This document shows, one piece after another, positions 4,216-29,229 of a DNA stretch of 31,790 bases (position 1 is the first letter of the stretch; each line of letters begins with the position of its first letter). The notes under the pieces were generated by a model. That model was not told the origin of the DNA, searched no databases, and saw only the letters and a program-made list of their open reading frames with translations. The stretch is from assembly GCA_034659235.1 (NCBI GenBank), contig JAYEGV010000103.1, positions 1 through 31,790 on the forward strand. The letters are read 5' to 3'. Position numbers and translations under genes: made by a program. Origin of the DNA: Methanobacteriota archaeon (GTDB taxonomy: Archaea; Halobacteriota; Methanosarcinia; Methanosarcinales; Methanogasteraceae).

Positions 4216-4902
4216 CTACTGCACCACGATCCCATCATCACTGATCCTGTAACTCGCCTTCTCGTGTTTGAGTCCAGCCATTGCCTCAATGGTGAGTTCC
4301 TCGCCATCGAGATGGATGATGTTGTCCGCAGTCGCTTTCAGCATCGTCTCAATCTGCGGCTCGGCTGATCCCTCGGTGTATGTGATGATACCGGTGCCAC
4401 CAGCCATCTTGATCCGCATGGTGTATGACTTGAGTACCCTGATGATCAGGATCGGTGAGTTGAATGCAAAGAGGGTGGTCGATGAATCCAGAACCGACCG
4501 GAATCGCTGTGCCTGCTGATAGACGGATTGCAGTTGCTGGATGAGCTTGCTTGCGATATCGGTTGGATTCTGCGGAAAGGATACCATCATATTCTTGGTC
4601 TCTTTTTGTATCGCGCCAACCGAGCCTGATGCCGTATCGATCACATATAACCTTTTGTTTGAGATGTAATCATGGATGAACCAGTTAAAAGCCATCATCT
4701 GCTGTTCAAGTTGAGATAAATTATAATCCGTCATCAGATACATGCACAGATCCCCTTCTTCTGCGGACTGGCGGAGGAACTGATAGCAGAATATGGATTT
4801 CCCAGTCTTTGGCGGACCATAAACCAGAGTCATCGTATTCTCTGGCAGACCACCTGTCAGATTATCAAAACCCGCAATTCCCGATCTTATTTTTGGAATC
4901 AT
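4216..4902 (-). CDS. KaiC/RAD55-like single-domain ATPase
   Basis: IRSGIAGFDNL, Walker A GPPKTGKS, Walker B region VLDS, ADNIIHL. Confidence 0.85.
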   Translation of the reverse strand: MIPKIRSGIAGFDNLTGGLPENTMTLVYGPPKTGKSIFCYQFLRQSAEEGDLCMYLMTDYNLSQLEQQMMAFNWFIHDYISNKRLYVIDTASGSVGAIQKETKNMMVSFPQNPTDIASKLIQQLQSVYQQAQRFRSVLDSSTTLFAFNSPILIIRVLKSYTMRIKMAGGTGIITYTEGSAEPQIETMLKATADNIIHLDGEELTIEAMAGLKHEKASYRISDDGIVVQ

Positions 4903-6098
4903 ACCCTGTATATGAGGCTGAATAAAATGTCCAGAGCCTCATCAAGTCCCTGTTTGTTTGCTGCCGATACCGGCACGATCGGAACATCCTCCCAGAGTGC
5001 CATCCTCTTCTTGATCTCATCAGGCGACAATGCGTTTGGAAGGTCCTGCTTGTTGGCGATTATTACCTTTGGTATCGCCTCTGTACGGCACATCCGGATC
5101 ATCTCCTTTGCACGCACGAACGTCTCTGGCTTTGTCGAATCGATCACGACAAAAGTACCGATAGCCTCTCTTCCAAGCGGTTCGAGCAGAAGATCGAACC
5201 GTTCCTGACCCGGGGTGCCAAATACGTCAGCTGAGAACCCTTTGTAATCGACATGTCCAATATCGAGCCCGACCGTCGTAGGAAATAGTTCAAAGGTTTG
5301 TCGCTCTACTGAAACAGTATCCGGAGCAATTGCATGGGCGAATGTCGTTTTTCCGGCATTGTACGGACCTGTTACCAGCAGTTTTGGTATAAATACCCTG
5401 ACACCACCAGGTTCCAAAACCTCGAAGAATATCTTGCTTCCGGAAGTCTTTATCCAGTTTGACTTTGTGATTGCAAAGACCTGCCGATAAATTACCTTCT
5501 CCTCGACACTGAAGAGTTTAATTTCGCAGTCAACGATATCAGACAGTCTATCGAGCATCACTTTCTCATAGTTCCATCGTGTGAACATGTATACCATATC
5601 CACATCGTTCGATCGTGCCTCCTTATTCAATCGCTCGATCAGGTCGAATGTCTGATCAACACCGATGGAATCGAGAAGCGTTGCGATATTGTCAATTACA
5701 GCGGTTCCTCCTGCGATATCAGAGATCGCGTTCGTGACTGTCTCCTCACTTTCTGCAAAATCATCGACCACGTACCTGCCGATTGCTGGCATCCCCATCA
5801 TCGGAGATATGGAATCGACAAAGAATGCCTGACCTGAGTCAAGCGGTGATCGCAAATCCCATCCATATCTCTGAAATACGTGTTCGATCTCAACAGGTGT
5901 TCTGGTGTTTGTATAGATGAAGCAAACATCCCTCTCGTTGCGCATGCGCTCGGCAATGATCTGATACCCGAAAACCTCAGACGTGATGCCTGGCATCGAT
6001 GTGAACAATATCGAGGTGCCGGCAGGCATGCCACCACCAAGCAGTTCATCGAGCATAGGAATATAGGTCTTACGCTTGCATTCGGCGTCTTTCACCAT
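4899..6098 (-). CDS. Fusion of a degenerate KaiC/RAD55-like domain with a C-terminal MglA/CvnD-like small GTPase
   Basis: N-terminal IPMLDELLGGG with a degenerate P-loop (SMPGITSE). C-terminal G1 GPYNAGKT, G2 PTTVGLD, G3 FGTPGQERF, G4 NKQD, G5 SAA. ATG 6098 follows the SD GAGGT. Confidence 0.85.
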   Translation of the reverse strand: MVKDAECKRKTYIPMLDELLGGGMPAGTSILFTSMPGITSEVFGYQIIAERMRNERDVCFIYTNTRTPVEIEHVFQRYGWDLRSPLDSGQAFFVDSISPMMGMPAIGRYVVDDFAESEETVTNAISDIAGGTAVIDNIATLLDSIGVDQTFDLIERLNKEARSNDVDMVYMFTRWNYEKVMLDRLSDIVDCEIKLFSVEEKVIYRQVFAITKSNWIKTSGSKIFFEVLEPGGVRVFIPKLLVTGPYNAGKTTFAHAIAPDTVSVERQTFELFPTTVGLDIGHVDYKGFSADVFGTPGQERFDLLLEPLGREAIGTFVVIDSTKPETFVRAKEMIRMCRTEAIPKVIIANKQDLPNALSPDEIKKRMALWEDVPIVPVSAANKQGLDEALDILFSLIYRV

Positions 6099-6099
6099 G

Positions 6100-6477
6100 T
6101 TATACCTCTTCAAGGATCTCCTGCACCTGTTTCGCTCTCGTTTCGATCTCCATCATAATCAGTCCGAGTTGAGCGCCGGATTCTGCCAGTGCGATCAAGA
6201 TTGCCTTTTCACCGGCTGGCTGGAGCAGTATCGTTCCCTGCGCGGTCTTCACATGAATATCACTCACCGCTCCTGTCCCCATCTGTGTACTGGCAGTCTC
6301 AGCGCTTGCCATGATCGTGGAGCAGAGTGCTGCAACGATCCGCTCATTCATCTCTGGCGGCATGCGAGCTGTTATCAGCAGTCCTTCCTTGGAGACGATG
6401 CCAACGGCTTTGATCTGCCCGACTTCTCCGAATCTGGCAAGAATCATGTCCAGTCTTTCTTTCTTGGTTTCAGGCAT
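6100..6477 (-). CDS. Roadblock/LC7 (MglB-like) protein
   Basis: IKAVGIVSKEGLLI, IVAALCSTI, AILIAL, QLGLIMMEI pattern. ATG 6477 follows the SD GGTGAG. Confidence 0.88.
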   Translation of the reverse strand: MPETKKERLDMILARFGEVGQIKAVGIVSKEGLLITARMPPEMNERIVAALCSTIMASAETASTQMGTGAVSDIHVKTAQGTILLQPAGEKAILIALAESGAQLGLIMMEIETRAKQVQEILEEV

Positions 6478-6486
6478 CCGACTCAC

Positions 6487-6612
6487 CTACCCGATCAACT
6501 CAAAGGTCACCACGTAATCCCCGAGTTTCGCGGTTTCATTGGTTATTCTTATCTGGAACCGCTCACCAAAAACCTTTCTGGCTGCGGAGGCTGCATAGAA
6601 GCCTGGTGTCAC
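6487..6612 (-). CDS. Unannotated 41-aa small ORF (MTPGFYAASAARKVFGERFQIRITNETAKLGDYVVTFELIG)
   Basis: GTG start overlaps the upstream TGA (GTGA) and is preceded by AGGTGAG. Its TAG stop sits in the Roadblock SD. It fills the intergenic gap exactly. Confidence 0.5.
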   Translation of the reverse strand: MTPGFYAASAARKVFGERFQIRITNETAKLGDYVVTFELIG

Positions 6613-7049
6613 GATCTCACCTTCTCTGTTATCTCACATTCCTCTCCTGGTTCGAGTTTTGCATAACCCTCTCCTCTGGTGCCCTTCACAGCATCGATTG
6701 CACCCCTGATAATTCCCGGGATCGGGCATACCGTAGTCTCGAAGGCAGCTCCTCCAACCTTCGTCGGACAGATATTACATTTTCTGATCGTAAGCGTAAT
6801 CGAACCATCTCTTTCGGTGATCTCAGGTTCCTCTCCAACTTCGAGTTCGTCTGTGATTATCTCGATCAACTCTTTTACCGGTGTATCCTTATTCACTAGG
6901 CCCTTCTCGAGGAGGAGTTTGCCGATTTCAGCACCGATATATGAGGTGAAGAGATTGGTCTGCTCCTGACTTGACTTTCCGAACAGTTCCCAGATCGCCG
7001 CTCCCAAGCCCATAAATGCGCGATGCGCATACTCGATTTTGTTAGTCAT
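6609..7049 (-). CDS. V4R-like / methanogen output domain-like protein
   Basis: IRKCNICP, VCPIPGIIRGA and ECEI pattern. GGAGG SD upstream. Confidence 0.6.
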   Translation of the reverse strand: MTNKIEYAHRAFMGLGAAIWELFGKSSQEQTNLFTSYIGAEIGKLLLEKGLVNKDTPVKELIEIITDELEVGEEPEITERDGSITLTIRKCNICPTKVGGAAFETTVCPIPGIIRGAIDAVKGTRGEGYAKLEPGEECEITEKVRS

Positions 7050-7137
7050 CTGATATCCTCCTTGTATTTGGTTCGTGATTGGATGGGTGGATACATAAGC
7101 TTTTACAATCCGCGTGCTCCGATCTCGTAATCATCTC

Positions 7138-7686
7138 TCATACCATCAATCTCTGCTCAACCAGCTCTTTCTTTGGTGCGATCACGAATACGCAAGCATC
7201 TGCGCCCTCCGCAATACATTCGGTCTCAACGCATTCTATATCCTCTCTTCCTGTGAGCGCCCTCATAAATCCTGTGAGGATGCCGCATGAGTAATAACAG
7301 GCTTTTGATGTATCGCCATGCTTCTTCCACGCCCAACCCTCAAATGCATCCTTGCACGTAACAACACCTTTTGCATGTTCATAATCGATCTCTTCGACGA
7401 TGAAATCCCCGAACCCTAGCTGCGCATAAGCATCCACACAATCCTTAAAACCCTGCTCTGATTCTGTGATGCTGCCAGACCTGAGTGCTCCCCGAACATA
7501 CGCGATACCGCCTTCGATTGCAGCATTGTAATATACTGTGCCTGCAACCGGACCTATAAGTTGTTCGACTGACTTCCTGATTCCATAAAAACCATGCTCG
7601 ATATCGGTGAGGCATGTCCGTGACCCTTCGACATAGATCCAGCCCCTGCTCCTGAATTCGATAAGCCTGCATGATATAGTCATCAT
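7138..7686 (-). CDS. V4R (4-vinyl reductase) domain protein
   Basis: YAQLGFG, FEG, CYYSCGILTGF and VETECIAEGADACVF are V4R signatures. Confidence 0.88.
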   Translation of the reverse strand: MMTISCRLIEFRSRGWIYVEGSRTCLTDIEHGFYGIRKSVEQLIGPVAGTVYYNAAIEGGIAYVRGALRSGSITESEQGFKDCVDAYAQLGFGDFIVEEIDYEHAKGVVTCKDAFEGWAWKKHGDTSKACYYSCGILTGFMRALTGREDIECVETECIAEGADACVFVIAPKKELVEQRLMV

Positions 7687-13432: not shown

Positions 13433-15487
13433 TCATGCACCTCCCATTCTAAACAGTTTAACCAGTATCAGCAATAGACTCACCCCGAATATCACCATGG
13501 TGGCGTAGTTCTGCACAACACCGGTCTGAATCTTCCGGCTGACCTCTCCTGACTTGATCGTAATCCAGCTCAAGAGATTGACCACGCCATCGATTACGTA
13601 TCTGTCGAGCACATCCCAGAACGTGAAGACCGTCATTATGATCTTCTCTGCAAGGATGTCTTTAAACAGGTAATCGAGGTAGTACTTGTTCCAGAGAATC
13701 TGGTAGAGCGGGTTGTCCTTCTTCACATACTTGCTCACATCGACCCGGTTCTTGTAGTAGACCGCTGTTGCGATCGCGAGTCCTGCGATCATTAAGAGTA
13801 GCGGCAGGTAGATCACCGCAGCAGGTATGTGATGGTGCACACCGTGTTCCAGCAGATGGTTGTGACCCAGAAGTGCGACCTCATGGAGATCGAGTCCTGG
13901 GTACACGCCAGTTGCTGTGTGCGTTTCCGTAACGAACGTCTCTTCAAGGAAGAGCCAGAATTTCTTGCCGCCTCCTGTTATTATTCCCAGGAATATTGCA
14001 AAGAACGAGAGCACGATAAGTGTCGTCTTCATCCAGAAGCCGCATTCATGCGGATGCACCGCAGGATGGCTTCTCGGTTCACCTGTCATTGCAAGGTACC
14101 ATGCCCGAAACGTGTAGGTTGCTGTGAGAATCACACCGAGCACAAGGAATATCCATGGCAGGTATCCGAGTTCTCCTGGATGATGCACCGTTGCATAGAG
14201 ATACGCCTCCTCAATGATCTTGTCCTTGCTGTAGTAGCCAGCAGTGAACGGGAATGCGACCAGTGCAAGTGCACCGGCAAACATCGCCCAACCAGTCCAC
14301 GGCATTCCCTTCAAGAGTCCTCCCATCTCTTTTATGTCTCGTATGTTATTGATCCCGTGCAAAACAGAACCGGACGAGAGAAAGAGGAGGGCTTTAAAGA
14401 ATGCGTGGGCGATAAGGTGGAAGAGTGCATAAGCAACGGAAGCTACTCCGAGCACTGCGCCGCAGCCGAGTATCGCAATCATGTAGCCGAGCTGGCTGAT
14501 TGTAGAGTATGCGAATATCCGCTTCAGGTCATTTACAACGAGTCCGAGCGTCGATGCATAGAGTGCTGTGAACGCTCCAAGGAACGCAACCACTGCCAGT
14601 GCGTGTGGCGCTGCAAGGAATATCGGAAACGCCCGTGCAATCAGATAGACACCAGCAGTAACCATCGTTGCAGCGTGAATGAGTGCGGACACAGTCGTCG
14701 GACCTTCCATCGCATCAGGAATCCAGACGTGAAGCGGGAAACCCGCGCTCTTTCCGAGCACACCGCACATGAAGAGCACGCAGATGATTGTTAGCGCACT
14801 CATGCCAAAGAGCGTCTCGTGGCTCAGGTGTTCAAGGTTCTGGAAGATGTTGTTGAACGAGATTATCTCTGTTGTTATCCCCTGTTTCACCATGATCGTG
14901 AACATCATAGCAATTCCTAAGAGGAAGAGACAGTCTCCGACCGAACATGCCATCCATGCCTTCTTGCCAGCTGCGGCAGCCTCTGGTCTGTGCCACCAGA
15001 ATCCGATCAACAGATACGAACAGACACCGACCATCTCCCAGAAGATGAAGAGCTGGAGCAGGTTGTTTGCAAGCACCAGACCGAACATACTGCCAGTAAA
15101 GAGCGCAGTCTCAGCAAAGTAAACGTTCTTTGCGCAGTCATGCGCCATGTATCCGATCGCATAGAAGTGGATAAAGAACGAGACGAACGATACCATGCAG
15201 ACCATTGCAAGCGATAGCGGGTCTACTACGAATCCCGCAACGATTCCCGGATAGAACCATTCCCATGAGTACTCCCAGAATCCGAGATGCTGGACGTACA
15301 CATTGTACAGACAGCCAAACGAGATGATCATCGAACCAAAGATCGATAGGGTCGCAAACATCCCGCCCTTGCGCCACCAGTACTTACCGATCAAGAGCTC
15401 GAGAAGGAATCCGATCATCGGCAGTAAGACGATCCAGTGTGCATACGGTCTGAAATCCATCGTAGCCAACATTAAATCTGCCATCAT
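13433..15487 (-). CDS. fpoL: Fpo/complex I-like subunit L
   Basis: LFIFWEMVGVCSYLLIGFW, GKSAGFPLHVWIPDAMEGPTTVSALIHAATMV, AYSTISQLG, HAFFKALLF. TAATG overlap with fpoK. Confidence 0.92.
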   Translation of the reverse strand: MMADLMLATMDFRPYAHWIVLLPMIGFLLELLIGKYWWRKGGMFATLSIFGSMIISFGCLYNVYVQHLGFWEYSWEWFYPGIVAGFVVDPLSLAMVCMVSFVSFFIHFYAIGYMAHDCAKNVYFAETALFTGSMFGLVLANNLLQLFIFWEMVGVCSYLLIGFWWHRPEAAAAGKKAWMACSVGDCLFLLGIAMMFTIMVKQGITTEIISFNNIFQNLEHLSHETLFGMSALTIICVLFMCGVLGKSAGFPLHVWIPDAMEGPTTVSALIHAATMVTAGVYLIARAFPIFLAAPHALAVVAFLGAFTALYASTLGLVVNDLKRIFAYSTISQLGYMIAILGCGAVLGVASVAYALFHLIAHAFFKALLFLSSGSVLHGINNIRDIKEMGGLLKGMPWTGWAMFAGALALVAFPFTAGYYSKDKIIEEAYLYATVHHPGELGYLPWIFLVLGVILTATYTFRAWYLAMTGEPRSHPAVHPHECGFWMKTTLIVLSFFAIFLGIITGGGKKFWLFLEETFVTETHTATGVYPGLDLHEVALLGHNHLLEHGVHHHIPAAVIYLPLLLMIAGLAIATAVYYKNRVDVSKYVKKDNPLYQILWNKYYLDYLFKDILAEKIIMTVFTFWDVLDRYVIDGVVNLLSWITIKSGEVSRKIQTGVVQNYATMVIFGVSLLLILVKLFRMGGA

Positions 15488-23163: not shown

Positions 23164-23185
23164 GGATAACTGGCAATCTGCTCAT
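23164..23185 (-). pseudogene. Stub of a HicA toxin gene (MSRLPVI)
   Basis: ATGA overlap with the hicB stop. ATG AGC AGA TTG CCA GTT ATC gives a typical HicA N-terminus; no HicA-like sequence follows. Confidence 0.5.
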
Positions 23186-23421
23186 ATCTCTACCGACACG
23201 ACGTGGTAACTGAACTCCTGGATTGCGTCAAGCTGTTCTACAATTTCTTCCTTTTGTTCCTCAAGGCACAATTCAATCACTTCGTGTATGTTTTTCAATG
23301 CTTCATCCAGTGTTTTTCCCTGCGTATAGCATCCCTGAAGAAGCGGACATTCTACCACAAAAAAACCATCTTCATCCGTCTCCACAAGAATTGGGAGATG
23401 AACTTTTTTAGACTCAGTCAT
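23182..23421 (-). CDS. HicB-family antitoxin (79 aa)
   Basis: ETDEDGFFVVECPLLQGCYTQGKTLDEALKNIHEVIEL is the HicB N-terminal signature. Start at ATG 23421. Confidence 0.88.
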   Translation of the reverse strand: MTESKKVHLPILVETDEDGFFVVECPLLQGCYTQGKTLDEALKNIHEVIELCLEEQKEEIVEQLDAIQEFSYHVVSVEI

Positions 23422-24916: not shown

Positions 24917-25094
24917 TGGATGTGCTGGTGCTTTGTGTGAAACCAATTCCCATCTCCTTAAACACATACATTACGAAAGATTTAATGAATATGAAACTTA
25001 TATTAATATACATACAAAAGGCAACATTCCCATTAATAAGCCACTGGCAAAAGAAGTGGAAGACGGAAATCACAACCCATCTTACCAGAGAAAC

Positions 25095-26330
25095 TTATAT
25101 AATTTCCCGGACTCTCTCCCAATCACTCACTGTAATCCTCTGACCAGCTTGATGATTGAAACTGCCAAGAACTTCCCGTATTTTTTCTAAATCAATGCAT
25201 TCAGGTATTTCCTTAATTTCCTCAAACGAGTACGCGGTAACAATTGATTTGCCTTCTGTATAGGTCTTGTATTCATCATCTTTGAAAGCAGATTGACGGC
25301 TATATTTTTTCCAGATATCATTTGGTTCGCCGCTGGATAAGTTTTTGATTATGGTATATCCTTTTATTCCCATAATCGGCGAAGTGACATAAAACAATAA
25401 GACCTGTCCATGGTCAACTCCAGGAGATATTCCCCCGCCTCTGAGATAAACACGATCTTTTTTCTCTAATAGGTTGTTTAAATATTTCGGTTTTATGATC
25501 GCGATTAACCCTGCAACTTCTTCAGGGGATTTTGGCAGACTTAAACCAGAAAGCTCTTCTAATTTATCACAATCTATAAGCGTGACACCTTTTTCATTGG
25601 CGTAATCTTTTGCCGAATCTGTGAAAAATGGTGCGAAACAAAATGATACACCTTTAACCATTCCGGATTCGTGGAGTGATTGCAGCTGCTCTTTATCGAC
25701 TTTATTGTCTAATCCGGCATTTATAAATACTGTTGAAATAATGTTCATCCCATTATCAGATTTCTTATATAAATAGCATTCTCTTTCAACCAACTTCTTT
25801 TCATGTTTGAAACCCCATAAACATTCCATAACCCATTTGGAGATCGCTACCCAATCATATTCACCCATATATTTAGCAGATAACCTTTTTACCAACCGAT
25901 AGCTCTCATTCCCCTCGCCATAAAAATCCCCTCTTGACTGAAACTCGAATCCTTTTTTCAGAAAAAATCTAACAGTATCAATTTCACTAACATAGGCATC
26001 GACTTGTATTTGAGTATAACCCCGCTCTATGCAATAGTTTTCGATGTACTCCAAAAGTTCATGACCGTTGCCGCTTTTCCTAAATTCCGGGCATATATAG
26101 AAGTTTTTTAACTCGACTGTTCCACTTGCTGTAACCCGGATAACCCCATCTCCACCAAGTTTTTCAGCAAATAATCCAAAAGCATGTTTCTTACCATCTT
26201 TTATTTTTTTAATAGTCTTTCCAACCCAACCTGCATAATCAGGATAACTCAAATCTTGAGATAACAAAAGCTCTTTCAGCTCTTGAATTTCTTCTTCGGA
26301 TATTATCCGATCGGGGTATCCTTCAGCCAT
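25095..26330 (-). CDS. GNAT acetyltransferase - Mrr-like REase-fold - ASCH/PUA-like fusion
   Basis: GNAT: FYICPEFRKSGNGHELL and RFFLKKGF. Mrr-cat-like tail: FTDSAKDYANEKGVTLIDCDKL. ASCH-like: IIKPKY and FYVTSPIMGIKG...GEPNDIW. AT-rich. Confidence 0.7.
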   Translation of the reverse strand: MAEGYPDRIISEEEIQELKELLLSQDLSYPDYAGWVGKTIKKIKDGKKHAFGLFAEKLGGDGVIRVTASGTVELKNFYICPEFRKSGNGHELLEYIENYCIERGYTQIQVDAYVSEIDTVRFFLKKGFEFQSRGDFYGEGNESYRLVKRLSAKYMGEYDWVAISKWVMECLWGFKHEKKLVERECYLYKKSDNGMNIISTVFINAGLDNKVDKEQLQSLHESGMVKGVSFCFAPFFTDSAKDYANEKGVTLIDCDKLEELSGLSLPKSPEEVAGLIAIIKPKYLNNLLEKKDRVYLRGGGISPGVDHGQVLLFYVTSPIMGIKGYTIIKNLSSGEPNDIWKKYSRQSAFKDDEYKTYTEGKSIVTAYSFEEIKEIPECIDLEKIREVLGSFNHQAGQRITVSDWERVREII

Positions 26331-26332
26331 GT

Positions 26333-26746
26333 TTAACCTTCTTCAACGATTCGTATTTTAAATAAAATAAATTTATTATATTTATCTTTGTAATTTTTGA
26401 TAAAAGCCATAACACCGGAATCGTTGCGGATAGCTGGCGGTATTGTTTCATCAAATATAGTGGATGGTATTTCTTTAAAAGAATTGACTACCAAGCGCTC
26501 TGTAATGATCCCCCATAGTGGGTCAGATTGGTAACCTCGCCTCAATTCAACTGTTCGGCCTTCTTTTATAGTTTTAGTGTTAAATATGTCATTAATCCCT
26601 CGTAACTCCCAGTGCTTCTTTCCTTCACGAAACAATTGATACCATTTCGTATCCAATGGCAAAAATAATCGATTATTCTTTTTTATTTTATCAATTTGCT
26701 CAGGCAACTCGAAGAAATGATGAAGTTTAAGTTGGTCTGATTGCAT
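26333..26746 (-). CDS. ASCH-domain protein
   Basis: FLPLDTKWYQLFREGKKHWELR fits the ASCH GxKxxExR motif. Two nt from the GNAT fusion start. Confidence 0.7.
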   Translation of the reverse strand: MQSDQLKLHHFFELPEQIDKIKKNNRLFLPLDTKWYQLFREGKKHWELRGINDIFNTKTIKEGRTVELRRGYQSDPLWGIITERLVVNSFKEIPSTIFDETIPPAIRNDSGVMAFIKNYKDKYNKFILFKIRIVEEG

Positions 26747-26961
26747 AATAAATAGTACATATCAATAGTATATCAATGTTGCTTCAAACATAAATAACAA
26801 TGCCAGAAGGCGCAGAGATGCCGCAGAATTCATTCGGGGATTGGGCGGCTGGAGCTTTTTATAGTGTAATGCGAGGCTGTCGTGTTCGACCAAAAATCAC
26901 GAATGAACAAATCACACGACTACCGCTGCCCCTTCGCCCCCCCTTCCACTTCTTCGCGCTC

Positions 26962-29229
26962 CTACTTCTTCTTCGCAGCCTTCACCGCCACCTGCTCGGA
27001 AAACACATTCAAGAGATTCATCAGCTTCTCGTACTGCGCGGTCTCGACATGCGAATACCGGATCGGCTTCTTGAACGCCTTTGTCTCCTTCTTCAGCCGG
27101 CGGTACAACCCCTTCGACCGCGAAGTGAGCGCCTCGTCGGTCGTACCCTCGATGAGCATCACGCCGCCAGCACCGCTCCTGTATGCATGGCTCACGATGT
27201 CCGCATCCAGCAGATGGATCGATGGCACCTGAATGAACCTGATAAGAGGTGAGTATTGTGTTCTGTTCACACCTGCAAGATCAGCAGCCGCGTACGCTGC
27301 AGGATCGATGTACGCGATAACACCCATTCCTGCATCAAGAATTCCTTCTGCCTGTGCTTTCAACTCTTCACGCGTATAGTTGGCAATTTCGACCGCTTCG
27401 TTCGGACACACAGCCGCACAGATCCCGCATGTATTACACGATAGTGGATCAAGCACAGGCTTTCCGTCAGCATCCGCCATTACCAGTGCTCCGTACGGAC
27501 ACTCAGCAACACAGATGCCGCATCCATCACACGCATCCGAGATCACTGGTTTCTCTGGCGAGATCGAGATCTCTCCCTTCCCAAGGAACCTGTGAATCTT
27601 GTGCGCAGCACCGATAGCTTCTGTTACCGAGTCATGGATGTCCTTTGGTCCCACAGCACATCCTGCCACAAAGACGCCCGGGTTGAGCGTATTCACAGGA
27701 TCGATCTTGACATGCTTCTCTTCAATGAATCCGTCGCTTCCCACAGGAACCCCGAGCGAATCCGCAAGTTCTCGCGATCCCTTTGAGGGAATAAGTGATG
27801 GGCAGAGCACAACCATATCGAACTCGTCCTGTCCGATCTCACCAAGGAAAGTATCCTCGTAGCGGACCTGTAACCTGCCACCATCCTCACCATTTAGCGG
27901 GGTGATATCAGCCACGCGTCCCCTGACAAAGTTCACTCCGATCTCTTGTGTGTGGTGGTAAAACTCTTCCATCCTTCTTCCTGCCGATCGTATATCGATG
28001 TAGAAGATCGTAACATCCGCATCCGGGTTCATCTTCATGACGAGCTGCGCCTGCTTCTGCGAATAGGGACAGCAGACCTTGGAACAGTGCTTGTTCCCGC
28101 GGTTGAAGTCGCGGGATCCGACGCAGAGAACAAATGCAACCTTCTGCGGCATGGTTCCATCTGACTTCTGCAGACGCATGCCGGTCTTACTCTTTGCAGA
28201 GAGCATATCCTCAAACTCGATTGCGGTTATCACATCAGGATGCCAGTAGTTGTACTCCTCGATTGTCATCGGGTCGATCGACTCAAATCCTGTCGCAATC
28301 GTTATCGCTCCAACATTCACCTCGATATCCTCAGGCACATCATCAAGTCTGATCGCGCCTGCCGCACAAACCTTTTCGCAGAGACCGCACTCGATGCACA
28401 GATCCTTATCGATGATGTATGCCTGTGGGATCGCCTGCGCAAACGGCAGGTAGATCGCATCCTTCGGACACTTCTCCGCACATCTGCCGCATGATGTACA
28501 TGCCTCGATATCCACATACCTGGGCATGCGGCGGAGGATTACATTGTAATCACCCACGTTTCCATCGACCGATGCAACCTCGGTCTGGGTGTAGAGTGTA
28601 ATATTGGGATGGTTGAAGACCGCAACCATCTTCGGGGTGAGGATGCACTGTGAGCAATCAAGCGTCGGAAACGTCTTTGAAAGCCCGATCATCTGCCCGC
28701 CGATGTGTGGCTTCCTCTCGATGAGGATCACCTCGCGATCATCAGCCATCTCAAGCGCAGCTGTTATTCCGGCAATGCCACCGCCAACAACCAGCACGCT
28801 GTCTTTCAGATCCTTTGTGATTGGTTGCAGGGATTCGAGGTTCTGCATCCGGAAGACTGCGCCCTTTACCAAGCCCATCGCTTTTCTTGTAGCCTCATCG
28901 CGATCCTCATGCACCCATGAACACTGCTCGCGGATGTTTGTGATCTCAAGAAGAAGGGGGTTGATGCCTGCTTTTTGTGCCATTGCACGGAACGTCTCAA
29001 GATGGAGTTTCGGAGAACACGAACCGATCACCACGCGGTCGATCAATCCTTTCGTTATATCATCACTGATCCGACCCTGCCCGGCACTGCTGCACAGGTA
29101 ATCCTGGACATTTGTTAGTGCCACACCAGCAATTCCGGAGACTTCATCTGCGATCTTCTCGACATCAACAACATCGCCGATGTTGCCTCCGCATCTACAG
29201 AGATATACACCGATATTTTTGCCGCTCAT
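26962..29229 (-). CDS. hdrA: Heterodisulfide reductase subunit A-like flavoprotein with a C-terminal, Cys-less MvhD-like domain
   Basis: CRCGGNI, CSPKLH, NIREQCSW, GGGIAG, KTFPTLDC, four CxxCxxCxxxC ferredoxin motifs, CVGSRD and CSKVCC. Tail AYAAADLAG...QY. ATG 29229; TTG 29253 is also possible. Confidence 0.9.
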   Translation of the reverse strand: MSGKNIGVYLCRCGGNIGDVVDVEKIADEVSGIAGVALTNVQDYLCSSAGQGRISDDITKGLIDRVVIGSCSPKLHLETFRAMAQKAGINPLLLEITNIREQCSWVHEDRDEATRKAMGLVKGAVFRMQNLESLQPITKDLKDSVLVVGGGIAGITAALEMADDREVILIERKPHIGGQMIGLSKTFPTLDCSQCILTPKMVAVFNHPNITLYTQTEVASVDGNVGDYNVILRRMPRYVDIEACTSCGRCAEKCPKDAIYLPFAQAIPQAYIIDKDLCIECGLCEKVCAAGAIRLDDVPEDIEVNVGAITIATGFESIDPMTIEEYNYWHPDVITAIEFEDMLSAKSKTGMRLQKSDGTMPQKVAFVLCVGSRDFNRGNKHCSKVCCPYSQKQAQLVMKMNPDADVTIFYIDIRSAGRRMEEFYHHTQEIGVNFVRGRVADITPLNGEDGGRLQVRYEDTFLGEIGQDEFDMVVLCPSLIPSKGSRELADSLGVPVGSDGFIEEKHVKIDPVNTLNPGVFVAGCAVGPKDIHDSVTEAIGAAHKIHRFLGKGEISISPEKPVISDACDGCGICVAECPYGALVMADADGKPVLDPLSCNTCGICAAVCPNEAVEIANYTREELKAQAEGILDAGMGVIAYIDPAAYAAADLAGVNRTQYSPLIRFIQVPSIHLLDADIVSHAYRSGAGGVMLIEGTTDEALTSRSKGLYRRLKKETKAFKKPIRYSHVETAQYEKLMNLLNVFSEQVAVKAAKKK

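Follow-up and report, generated by a model that had tools for sequence, protein, structure and literature searches.

The 31,790-nucleotide stretch analysed here (the window; contig JAYEGV010000103.1, assembly GCA_034659235.1) comes from a Methanogasteraceae archaeon of the order Methanosarcinales and carries on its minus strand a two-gene cassette that probably encodes a conflict system of the virus-defence or toxin-antidote type. Gene 1 encodes a small stand-alone ASCH protein, while gene 2 encodes a fusion of a GNAT acetyltransferase domain, a Mrr-like nuclease fold predicted to be catalytically dead and a second ASCH domain. Judging from the sequence comparisons below, the cassette is a rare, horizontally mobile unit and a variant of the (PIN)-GNAT-EVE + ASCH class, which is listed in PADLOC as candidate PDC-M11. 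We propose tentatively that the GNAT domain writes, and the gene 1 protein erases, an acyl mark on nucleic acid. The features of the cassette are the following.

25076..26815, minus strand: the whole, apparently mobile cassette, comprising both genes plus 19 bp downstream and 69 bp upstream; the span is that of the blastn match to locus L001, and its GC content is 36.4%.
26333..26746, minus strand: gene 1, encoding a stand-alone ASCH protein (137 aa) whose family has no Pfam model.
26600..26623, minus strand: GxKxxExR motif of gene 1 (G42, K44, E47, R49), invariant in 28 sequences.
25095..26330, minus strand: gene 2, a 411-aa GNAT / Mrr-like / ASCH fusion, supported by an AlphaFold2 (AF2) model, homologue clusters and the ratio of nonsynonymous to synonymous substitution rates (dN/dS).
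25881..26330, minus strand: GNAT domain of gene 2, residues 1-150, with R84-x-x-G87-x-G89 at 26064-26081.
25527..25877, minus strand: Mrr_cat-like PD-(D/E)xK fold of gene 2, residues ~152-268, predicted to be catalytically dead (Pfam, hhalign).
25098..25520, minus strand: C-terminal ASCH domain of gene 2, of the ZmASCH/PDC-M11B type, residues 271-411, with K-K-D292-R293-V294-Y295 (25440-25463) in place of the triad.
26747..26815, minus strand: AT-rich upstream region, inferred to hold the promoter, inside the span common to L001.

The two open reading frames (ORFs) are present as originally predicted, gene 1 lying upstream of gene 2 across a 2-nt gap (26331-26332). They are real genes under purifying selection: each has about 40 homologue clusters (38 for gene 2), down to ~50% identity, and in comparison with the L001 copy, which is 91% identical, dN/dS is low, at 0.13 in gene 1 and 0.14-0.22 in gene 2. 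Their predicted co-conservation was also found: gene 1 stands directly upstream of gene 2 in six of six distinct genomes (the window, L001, L002, L003, L004 and L005), and in nine pairs of gene-1 and gene-2 homologue clusters the contigs are equally long within each pair. The AT-rich island described in the original prediction was reproduced to the exact count (20 G or C in 60 nt at 25681-25740, 34 in 60 at 14401-14460). Over 25076-26815 the GC content is 36.4% versus 49.2% in the rest of the window, the lowest of any 1740-bp stretch in it, and the GC content at third codon positions is 0.31-0.33 in the cassette genes versus 0.50-0.60 in the hdrA-type and cbiA-type genes that flank them.

The copy in L001, a metagenome-assembled genome (MAG) of the Methanosarcinales, is 91% identical over exactly 25076-26815 (1740 bp) by blastn, with unrelated flanks; its neighbours are a pyruvate kinase gene, a ribbon-helix-helix (RHH)/UPF0175 gene and a cobalamin gene. 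The pair occurs in yet other neighbourhoods in L004 (Methanotrichaceae) and L005 (Methanoperedens). The genome G085, of the same genus, has an hdrA gene 92% identical to that of the window, and homology ends with the stop codon of this gene; no copy of the cassette was found in G085, which is ~78% complete and has hdrA and cbiA on separate contigs, so that no empty site is demonstrable. Only 4 of the order's 201 genomes gave strong full-length matches; a broader profile detected the family in 9 of the phylum's 401. Inspection of both ends revealed no tRNA gene, no integrase and no convincing terminal repeats; the sole feature at the ends is an inverted pair of 12 nt without mismatch (25051-25062 and 26943-26954), whose chance expectation we estimate at ~0.16. 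Taken by sequence and distribution, the cassette is thus a discrete, horizontally mobile two-gene unit that is rare.

Two of the other copies have flanks worth recording. In genome G061, L002:1413-1913 matches 26816-27320 of the window, and the ~360 bp that come after the cassette match just the 3' end of the window's hdrA, at 74-85% identity; the hdrA homologues of G061 lie on other contigs, and therefore this flank fragment seemingly travelled with the cassette. In L004 the region before the cassette (4857-7351) encodes a winged helix-turn-helix protein and an SMC-like ATPase of the AAA_23 type (668 aa); the two may form a further defence pair.

The predicted structure of the gene 1 protein (mean predicted local distance difference test score, pLDDT, 83.6) is a PUA-like ASCH beta-barrel whose second-best structural match is Escherichia coli YqfB, and the motif G42-x-K44-x-x-E47-x-R49, correctly noted as intact in the original prediction, is invariant across 28 homologues. 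We class gene 1 as a YqfB/PH0355-like ASCH protein. It has no Pfam family at E <= 1 (PF04266 included), no NCBIfam family and no PADLOC model; without a Pfam match, its ASCH membership is argued from fold and motif. The Atlas clusters nearest to it contain PF04266 in 44-61% of their members, which we take as a lead only. Sequence kinship of gene 1 with the ASCH protein of PDC-M11B was considered and rejected (hhalign probability against true PDC-M11B 3.8%), as was kinship with the ASCH domain of gene 2 (0.6%).

In human EOLA1 and YqfB, the triad K21, E24 (T24 in YqfB) and R26 is needed for deacetylation of N4-acetylcytidine (ac4C; preprint 10.64898/2026.08.01.741249). K44, E47 and R49 of gene 1 have a spacing identical to that of K21, E24/T24 and R26, a comparison of motif spacing in which the residues were not superposed one by one. 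An ac4C-type hydrolase activity of gene 1 is plausible by this likeness.

Stand-alone ASCH proteins of the gene 1 family, with 34-42% identity and the KxxExR motif kept, are also encoded on two IMG/VR viral contigs (L032:2418-2903 and L033:110-505). The former gene lies between those for a dCMP deaminase and a DNA polymerase (assigned to family B from its translation and not from Pfam), with a thymidylate-synthase-family gene nearby, and the latter adjoins a C5-cytosine DNA methylase gene. The viral homologues could serve nucleotide metabolism or act as counter-defence erasers. GenBank phages yielded no relative of gene 1 or gene 2. An 89-aa fragment of a gene 1 homologue with 74% identity (P0075) is labelled as belonging to a Deltaproteobacteria MAG, which could reflect mis-binning or transfer between consortium partners.

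The AF2 model of the gene 2 protein has a pLDDT of 89.5 and a predicted template modelling score (pTM) of 0.79. The complete GNAT domain of the original prediction is well supported: Acetyltransf_10 scores 30.3 bits (cut-off 23.6) and Acetyltransf_1 28.6 bits (cut-off 20.7), Pfam GNAT models match all 27 of the 27 family members, and residues 1-150 show a GNAT fold with an intact pyrophosphate-binding motif for acetyl-coenzyme A (acetyl-CoA), R/Q-x-x-G-x-G/A. Its best fold matches are Ard1, RimI and Naa50. No relative of gene 2 was found on IMG/VR viral contigs, and a search of plasmids with the cassette genes gave single-domain matches only. At L044:1268-2544 (G235), downstream of a PDC-M11A/B-like pair, a gene-2 relative is split by one TAA stop into ORFs of 120 and 321 aa; it is probably a decaying copy.

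The middle domain of gene 2 scores 19.8 bits against PF04471 (Mrr_cat; cut-off 21), over profile positions 58-114 only, while Mrr_cat matches 18 of the 27 gene-2 relatives (best E 1.6e-5). Aligned by hhalign with a true Mrr of its own genome, only the post-catalytic half matches; read back from that alignment, the position of (E/Q)xK corresponds in approximate register to ~I203-x-A205. The D...(E/Q)xK catalytic residues are absent from the window family, as had been claimed, and E-V-K is kept solely in a remote branch (P0080-P0084). The Atlas clusters nearest to the middle domain are all Mrr_cat (0.81-0.84; a lead only). Whole-model Foldseek and VIA searches with the 411-aa protein returned lists filled by GNAT and ASCH chains, and profile searches of solved structures with gene 2 gave no Mrr-type match at E <= 1; the order of alpha and beta elements, by our own reading of the model, is consistent with a Mrr_cat-type fold. 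The middle domain is accordingly best described, by its sequence, as a Mrr_cat-like fold predicted to be catalytically dead.

Residues 271-411 are homologous in sequence and fold to ZmASCH, the Zymomonas mobilis protein ZMO0922 (PDB code: 5GUQ), and to PDC-M11B (E 1.9e-12). This second ASCH domain lacks GxKxxExR; the aligned segment reads K-K-D292-R293-V294-Y295-L-R, with D at the position of the triad K and Y/F at that of the E, within an invariant K-D-R-V segment. The original prediction had called its motif degenerate: the triad is indeed lost, but the domain is not simply degenerate, as it keeps an invariant Y314, equivalent to Y47 of ZmASCH, and an invariant cleft segment, NHQxGQ. Y47 is needed for nucleic-acid binding by ZmASCH (PMC5615036). 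From this pattern of conservation, we read the C-terminal domain as a binder or reader rather than a hydrolase.

A class of (PIN)-GNAT-EVE proteins, almost always accompanied by a separate ASCH gene, was described by Bell, Wolf and Koonin 2020 (PMC7641849), who credit Iyer et al. 2013. These genes often occur with an AAA_17-type ATPase and type I restriction-modification (R-M) genes, and the systems were predicted to be toxin-antitoxin (TA) or defence systems (PMC7641849). Aminoacyl-tRNA is discussed there as a possible target of GNAT-EVE proteins, and, in the account that Bell et al. give of Iyer et al. 2013, acetylation of DNA bases has been proposed for the class (PMC7641849). We equate PDC-M11 with this class because the EVE protein and the 127-aa ASCH protein of L013 match the PDC-M11A (E 4.5e-109) and PDC-M11B (E 1.4e-49) models, respectively.

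L013 also ties the class to the cassette, its PDC-M11 pair being followed by a 419-aa gene-2 relative and then by HsdS. In L012 a PDC-M11B-type ASCH domain is joined in one chain to the N-terminus of a GNAT-Mrr-ASCH relative of gene 2 (565 aa), in L030 and L031 a gene-1 homologue lies beside PDC-M11A/B-like genes without gene 2, and in P0227 (528 aa, on 5 contigs) a gene-1 homologue with 59% identity is fused to a PDC-M11A-like GNAT-EVE protein. The cassette itself falls outside the PADLOC models in part: gene 1 has no match, PDC-M11B included, and gene 2 matches PDC-M11B as stated above and PDC-M11A weakly (residues 285-385, 28 bits), failing the full-length model, with no EVE match in Pfam. 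We found no paper on the GNAT-Mrr-ASCH architecture or on the gene-1 family, and none combining ASCH, GNAT, Mrr and TIR. The original prediction that this is no named system thus holds for the exact architecture; nonetheless, since the class was already predicted and catalogued, the cassette is a variant of it, rather than a wholly new kind of system.

The remote relatives of gene 2 supply the argument for a conflict role. A family profile searched against 1.84 billion representatives returned 49 clusters at E <= 1e-30, a range in which the complete three-domain form is typical, and 205 at E <= 1e-10. Most of the 49 are 580-760-aa proteins that carry an additional domain C-terminal to the three-domain module. 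The additional domains are TIR_2 (L015, preceded by an AAA_28 ATPase), HD-CE (P0091), PNP_UDP_1 (P0108, P0116, P0122 and P0130) and PRTase-CE (P0113), and in PADLOC they hit the models for effectors from Thoeris-like, DRT, CBASS and retron systems. Swappable effector domains targeting nucleotides or NAD+ are a hallmark of abortive-infection immunity. Another gene-2 relative, in L040, adjoins an N6 DNA methylase gene. Because remote relatives carry TIR, PNP, PRTase or HD effectors or adjoin type I R-M genes, we consider it likely that the cassette is a conflict system; this part of the original prediction of a writer/eraser/reader conflict module is backed also by mobility, rarity and the PDC-M11 links, while its chemistry is something that we infer.

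A small ASCH protein or domain with intact GxKxxExR is adjacent or fused in 8/8 short forms examined, versus 0/3 effector-bearing long forms within 1.5 kb, and the GNAT domain is equally conserved in short and long forms. Metagenomes, scanned for relatives of the long form, gave one 1.5-kb fragment. Two long forms of 588 and 624 aa (L039:3-1313 and L040:3-1361, minus strand), from two Methanosarcinaceae-level genomes, have C-terminal domains without a Pfam match and a common divergently transcribed neighbour of 437-453 aa, also without a Pfam match, whose N-terminus (MRILIDTNIF...) looks PIN-like.

The mechanism that we favour, which we hold to be possible but short of probable, starts from gene 2 acting as an acetyl-CoA-dependent acetyltransferase. 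The dead Mrr-type fold and the triad-less ASCH domain would be nucleic-acid-binding or reader modules that guide the GNAT domain to nucleic acid, where it would transfer the acetyl group to an exocyclic or aminoacyl amine, with cytosine N4 as the most plausible target. The gene 1 protein, translationally coupled upstream, would be a YqfB-like hydrolase that uses K44-E47-R49 to remove the same acyl mark, and would thereby restrain or reset the modification as an antidote or eraser; the harmful partner, like the activities and the substrate, is a matter of prediction. The proposal draws on the chemical complementarity of the two proteins, on the small-gene-first coupling and on the viral gene-1 homologues, and its chemistry depends on gene 1 keeping the K-E-R triad, which published work on YqfB and EOLA1 connects with ac4C deacetylation. 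In a bolder form, which we consider rather unlikely as a whole, the cassette would be an archaeal immune module that signals by reversible nucleobase acetylation (e.g. N4-acetylcytosine, in DNA or RNA), with a GNAT writer that the dead nuclease fold and an ASCH reader guide, and with a dedicated ASCH eraser; viral erasers would act as counter-defence, and in sister lineages the sensor module would have suicide effectors of the TIR, PNP, PRTase or HD type attached to it.

Several observations weigh against writing and erasing by the two genes. No member of the class has a measured activity (Bell et al. 2020, PMC7641849), and we found no later experimental paper. The GNAT domain of gene 2 resembles N-terminal protein acetyltransferases (the Ard1, RimI and Naa50 matches), and no tRNA-acetylating toxin occurs among its PDB profile matches (E <= 1) or its top 50 fold matches. 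In sequence, gene 1 matches neither Pfam ASCH nor PDC-M11B significantly, and the window is not a defence island, with hdrA and cbiA on either side of the cassette. If the GNAT domain needed an antidote in every case, it would be difficult to explain why the three effector-bearing relatives keep it conserved with no ASCH partner within 1.5 kb, and the presence of ASCH and GNAT in one chain (L012, P0227) would amount to a futile cycle unless regulated.

In the main rival of a writer and eraser, which the original prediction did not consider, the GNAT-Mrr-ASCH protein senses or regulates while the effector is the small ASCH protein, as an RNase or nucleotide hydrolase, a role that falls in the long forms to the TIR, PNP, PRTase or HD domain at the C-terminus. 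The exclusive distribution of small ASCH and effector domains (8/8 versus 0/3) is as expected from such an exchange, albeit in a small sample of 8 versus 3 loci with short flanks, and the equal conservation of GNAT in both forms suggests one shared, non-toxic GNAT role. ZmASCH, whose motif is intact, cleaves single-stranded RNA in vitro (PMC5615036); its authors noted, however, that no acidic metal-binding site is known in ASCH proteins (PMC5615036). The small-gene-first order with a 2-nt gap fits antidote-toxin pairs instead, and viruses carry gene-1 homologues alone in nucleotide-metabolism modules, which would be odd for a suicide effector. We judge the effector reading of gene 1 somewhat unlikely. 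That gene order, with translational coupling, would also suit a classical type II TA system in which the GNAT domain has aminoacyl-tRNA as its substrate and is neutralised by gene 1 through binding, not through catalysis; the mobile, AT-rich and rare locus agrees with this, as does the mention of aminoacyl-tRNA among the possible GNAT-EVE targets (Bell et al., PMC7641849). The upstream partner, however, is an ASCH fold and the GNAT protein has three domains instead of one, two of which, of nucleic-acid type, would be unaccounted for. To our knowledge, known GNAT toxins are paired with antitoxins that bind DNA and are of the RHH or helix-turn-helix (HTH) type. Furthermore, the invariant K-E-R triad argues for catalysis by gene 1, and no TacT, AtaT, KacT or ItaT chain is among the PDB matches, which makes a classical TA system improbable.

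Self-marking in the manner of R-M systems, with the GNAT domain marking host nucleic acid, the ASCH modules reading the mark and neighbouring or unlinked nucleases killing, would agree with relatives embedded beside HsdS or HsdM and PDC-M11 and with the DNA-base acetylation proposed for the class (Iyer et al. 2013, as reported by Bell et al., PMC7641849). We give it little credence: the window cassette moves as two genes without a nuclease, its own nuclease fold is predicted to be dead and its flanks are housekeeping genes. A housekeeping role of the pair itself, either RimI/Ard1-type N-terminal protein acetylation or ac4C homeostasis of tRNA or rRNA with a salvage deacetylase, is suggested by the GNAT fold matches and by YqfB and EOLA1 being salvage enzymes (preprint 10.64898/2026.08.01.741249). 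Such a role is very improbable in view of distribution and mobility, the pair having turned up in no more than 4/201 genomes at the level of the order and 9/401 at that of the phylum, on a low-GC mobile cassette that was not found in the same-genus genome G085; the relatives fused to TIR, PNP, PRTase or HD effectors likewise speak against it.

The GNAT + PUA-fold + ASCH class occurs widely and figures among the listed defence candidates. No other version of it is as compact or as suggestive in its chemistry as the cassette, which has an intact acetyl-CoA site and the ac4C-deacetylation triad in two genes. Its two small proteins bear on whether acyl marks are put on nucleic acids and taken off again by the conflict systems of prokaryotes, and on what purpose ASCH domains serve. 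As the three-domain module is also the N-terminal part of TIR, PNP, PRTase and HD proteins, it provides a link to abortive-infection immunity and natural comparison constructs.

Three further elements lie around the cassette. Between cbiA and the cassette, a ~115-bp sequence (24951-25069), single-copy in the host genome, has dispersed matches of 72-80% identity in G033 (more than 10), G069, G028, G085, G045 and G088, and looks like a small mobile repeat. Across the upstream cassette boundary, ~75 bp (26782-26858) have three partial genomic copies (two on C225, one on C152) and one copy in G028. A 79-aa HicB-like antitoxin gene (23185-23421, minus strand; PF15919, E 5.8e-10) is located between a metallo-beta-lactamase-fold gene and cbiA.

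Among known systems, gene 1 is comparable to YqfB and EOLA1 as a stand-alone ASCH protein of ~100-140 aa with the same K-x-x-E/T-x-R spacing. It differs from them in having no detectable sequence homology, in a disordered N-terminus of 20 residues and in extra C-terminal helices; moreover, YqfB and EOLA1 are salvage enzymes without a paired acetyltransferase, and the activity of gene 1 is predicted only. ZmASCH shares the cleft Tyr with gene 2 (Y47, Y314) but keeps GxKxxExR and was reported as a Mg-dependent single-stranded RNA nuclease, whereas gene 2 has the invariant K-D-R-V-Y/F segment within a three-domain protein. The middle domain of gene 2 resembles the post-catalytic half of the Mrr-type (Mrr_cat, PF04471) type IV restriction endonucleases; unlike them, gene 2 has neither the catalytic (E/Q)xK nor an N-terminal Mrr DNA-reader domain, and its match stays below the Pfam threshold. 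With the GNAT-toxin TA systems (TacAT, AtaRT, KacAT and ItaRT) the cassette has in common a small coupled gene that precedes the GNAT gene and a mobile locus; it departs from them in its partner, an ASCH fold and not an RHH or HTH protein, in the two extra domains of the GNAT protein and in the absence of toxin GNATs among the structures nearest to gene 2. The closest counterpart is the PDC-M11 class. Here the reader is an ASCH instead of an EVE domain, a dead Mrr-type fold is inserted between GNAT and reader, the PIN domain is missing, gene 2 matches PDC-M11A weakly and over the PUA-like part only, and gene 1 matches no PDC-M11 model. Both, however, fuse a GNAT domain to a C-terminal PUA-fold reader domain and pair it with a small ASCH protein; both are mobile, linked to type I R-M genes and of predicted function only, and the ASCH domain of gene 2 is a paralogue of PDC-M11B.

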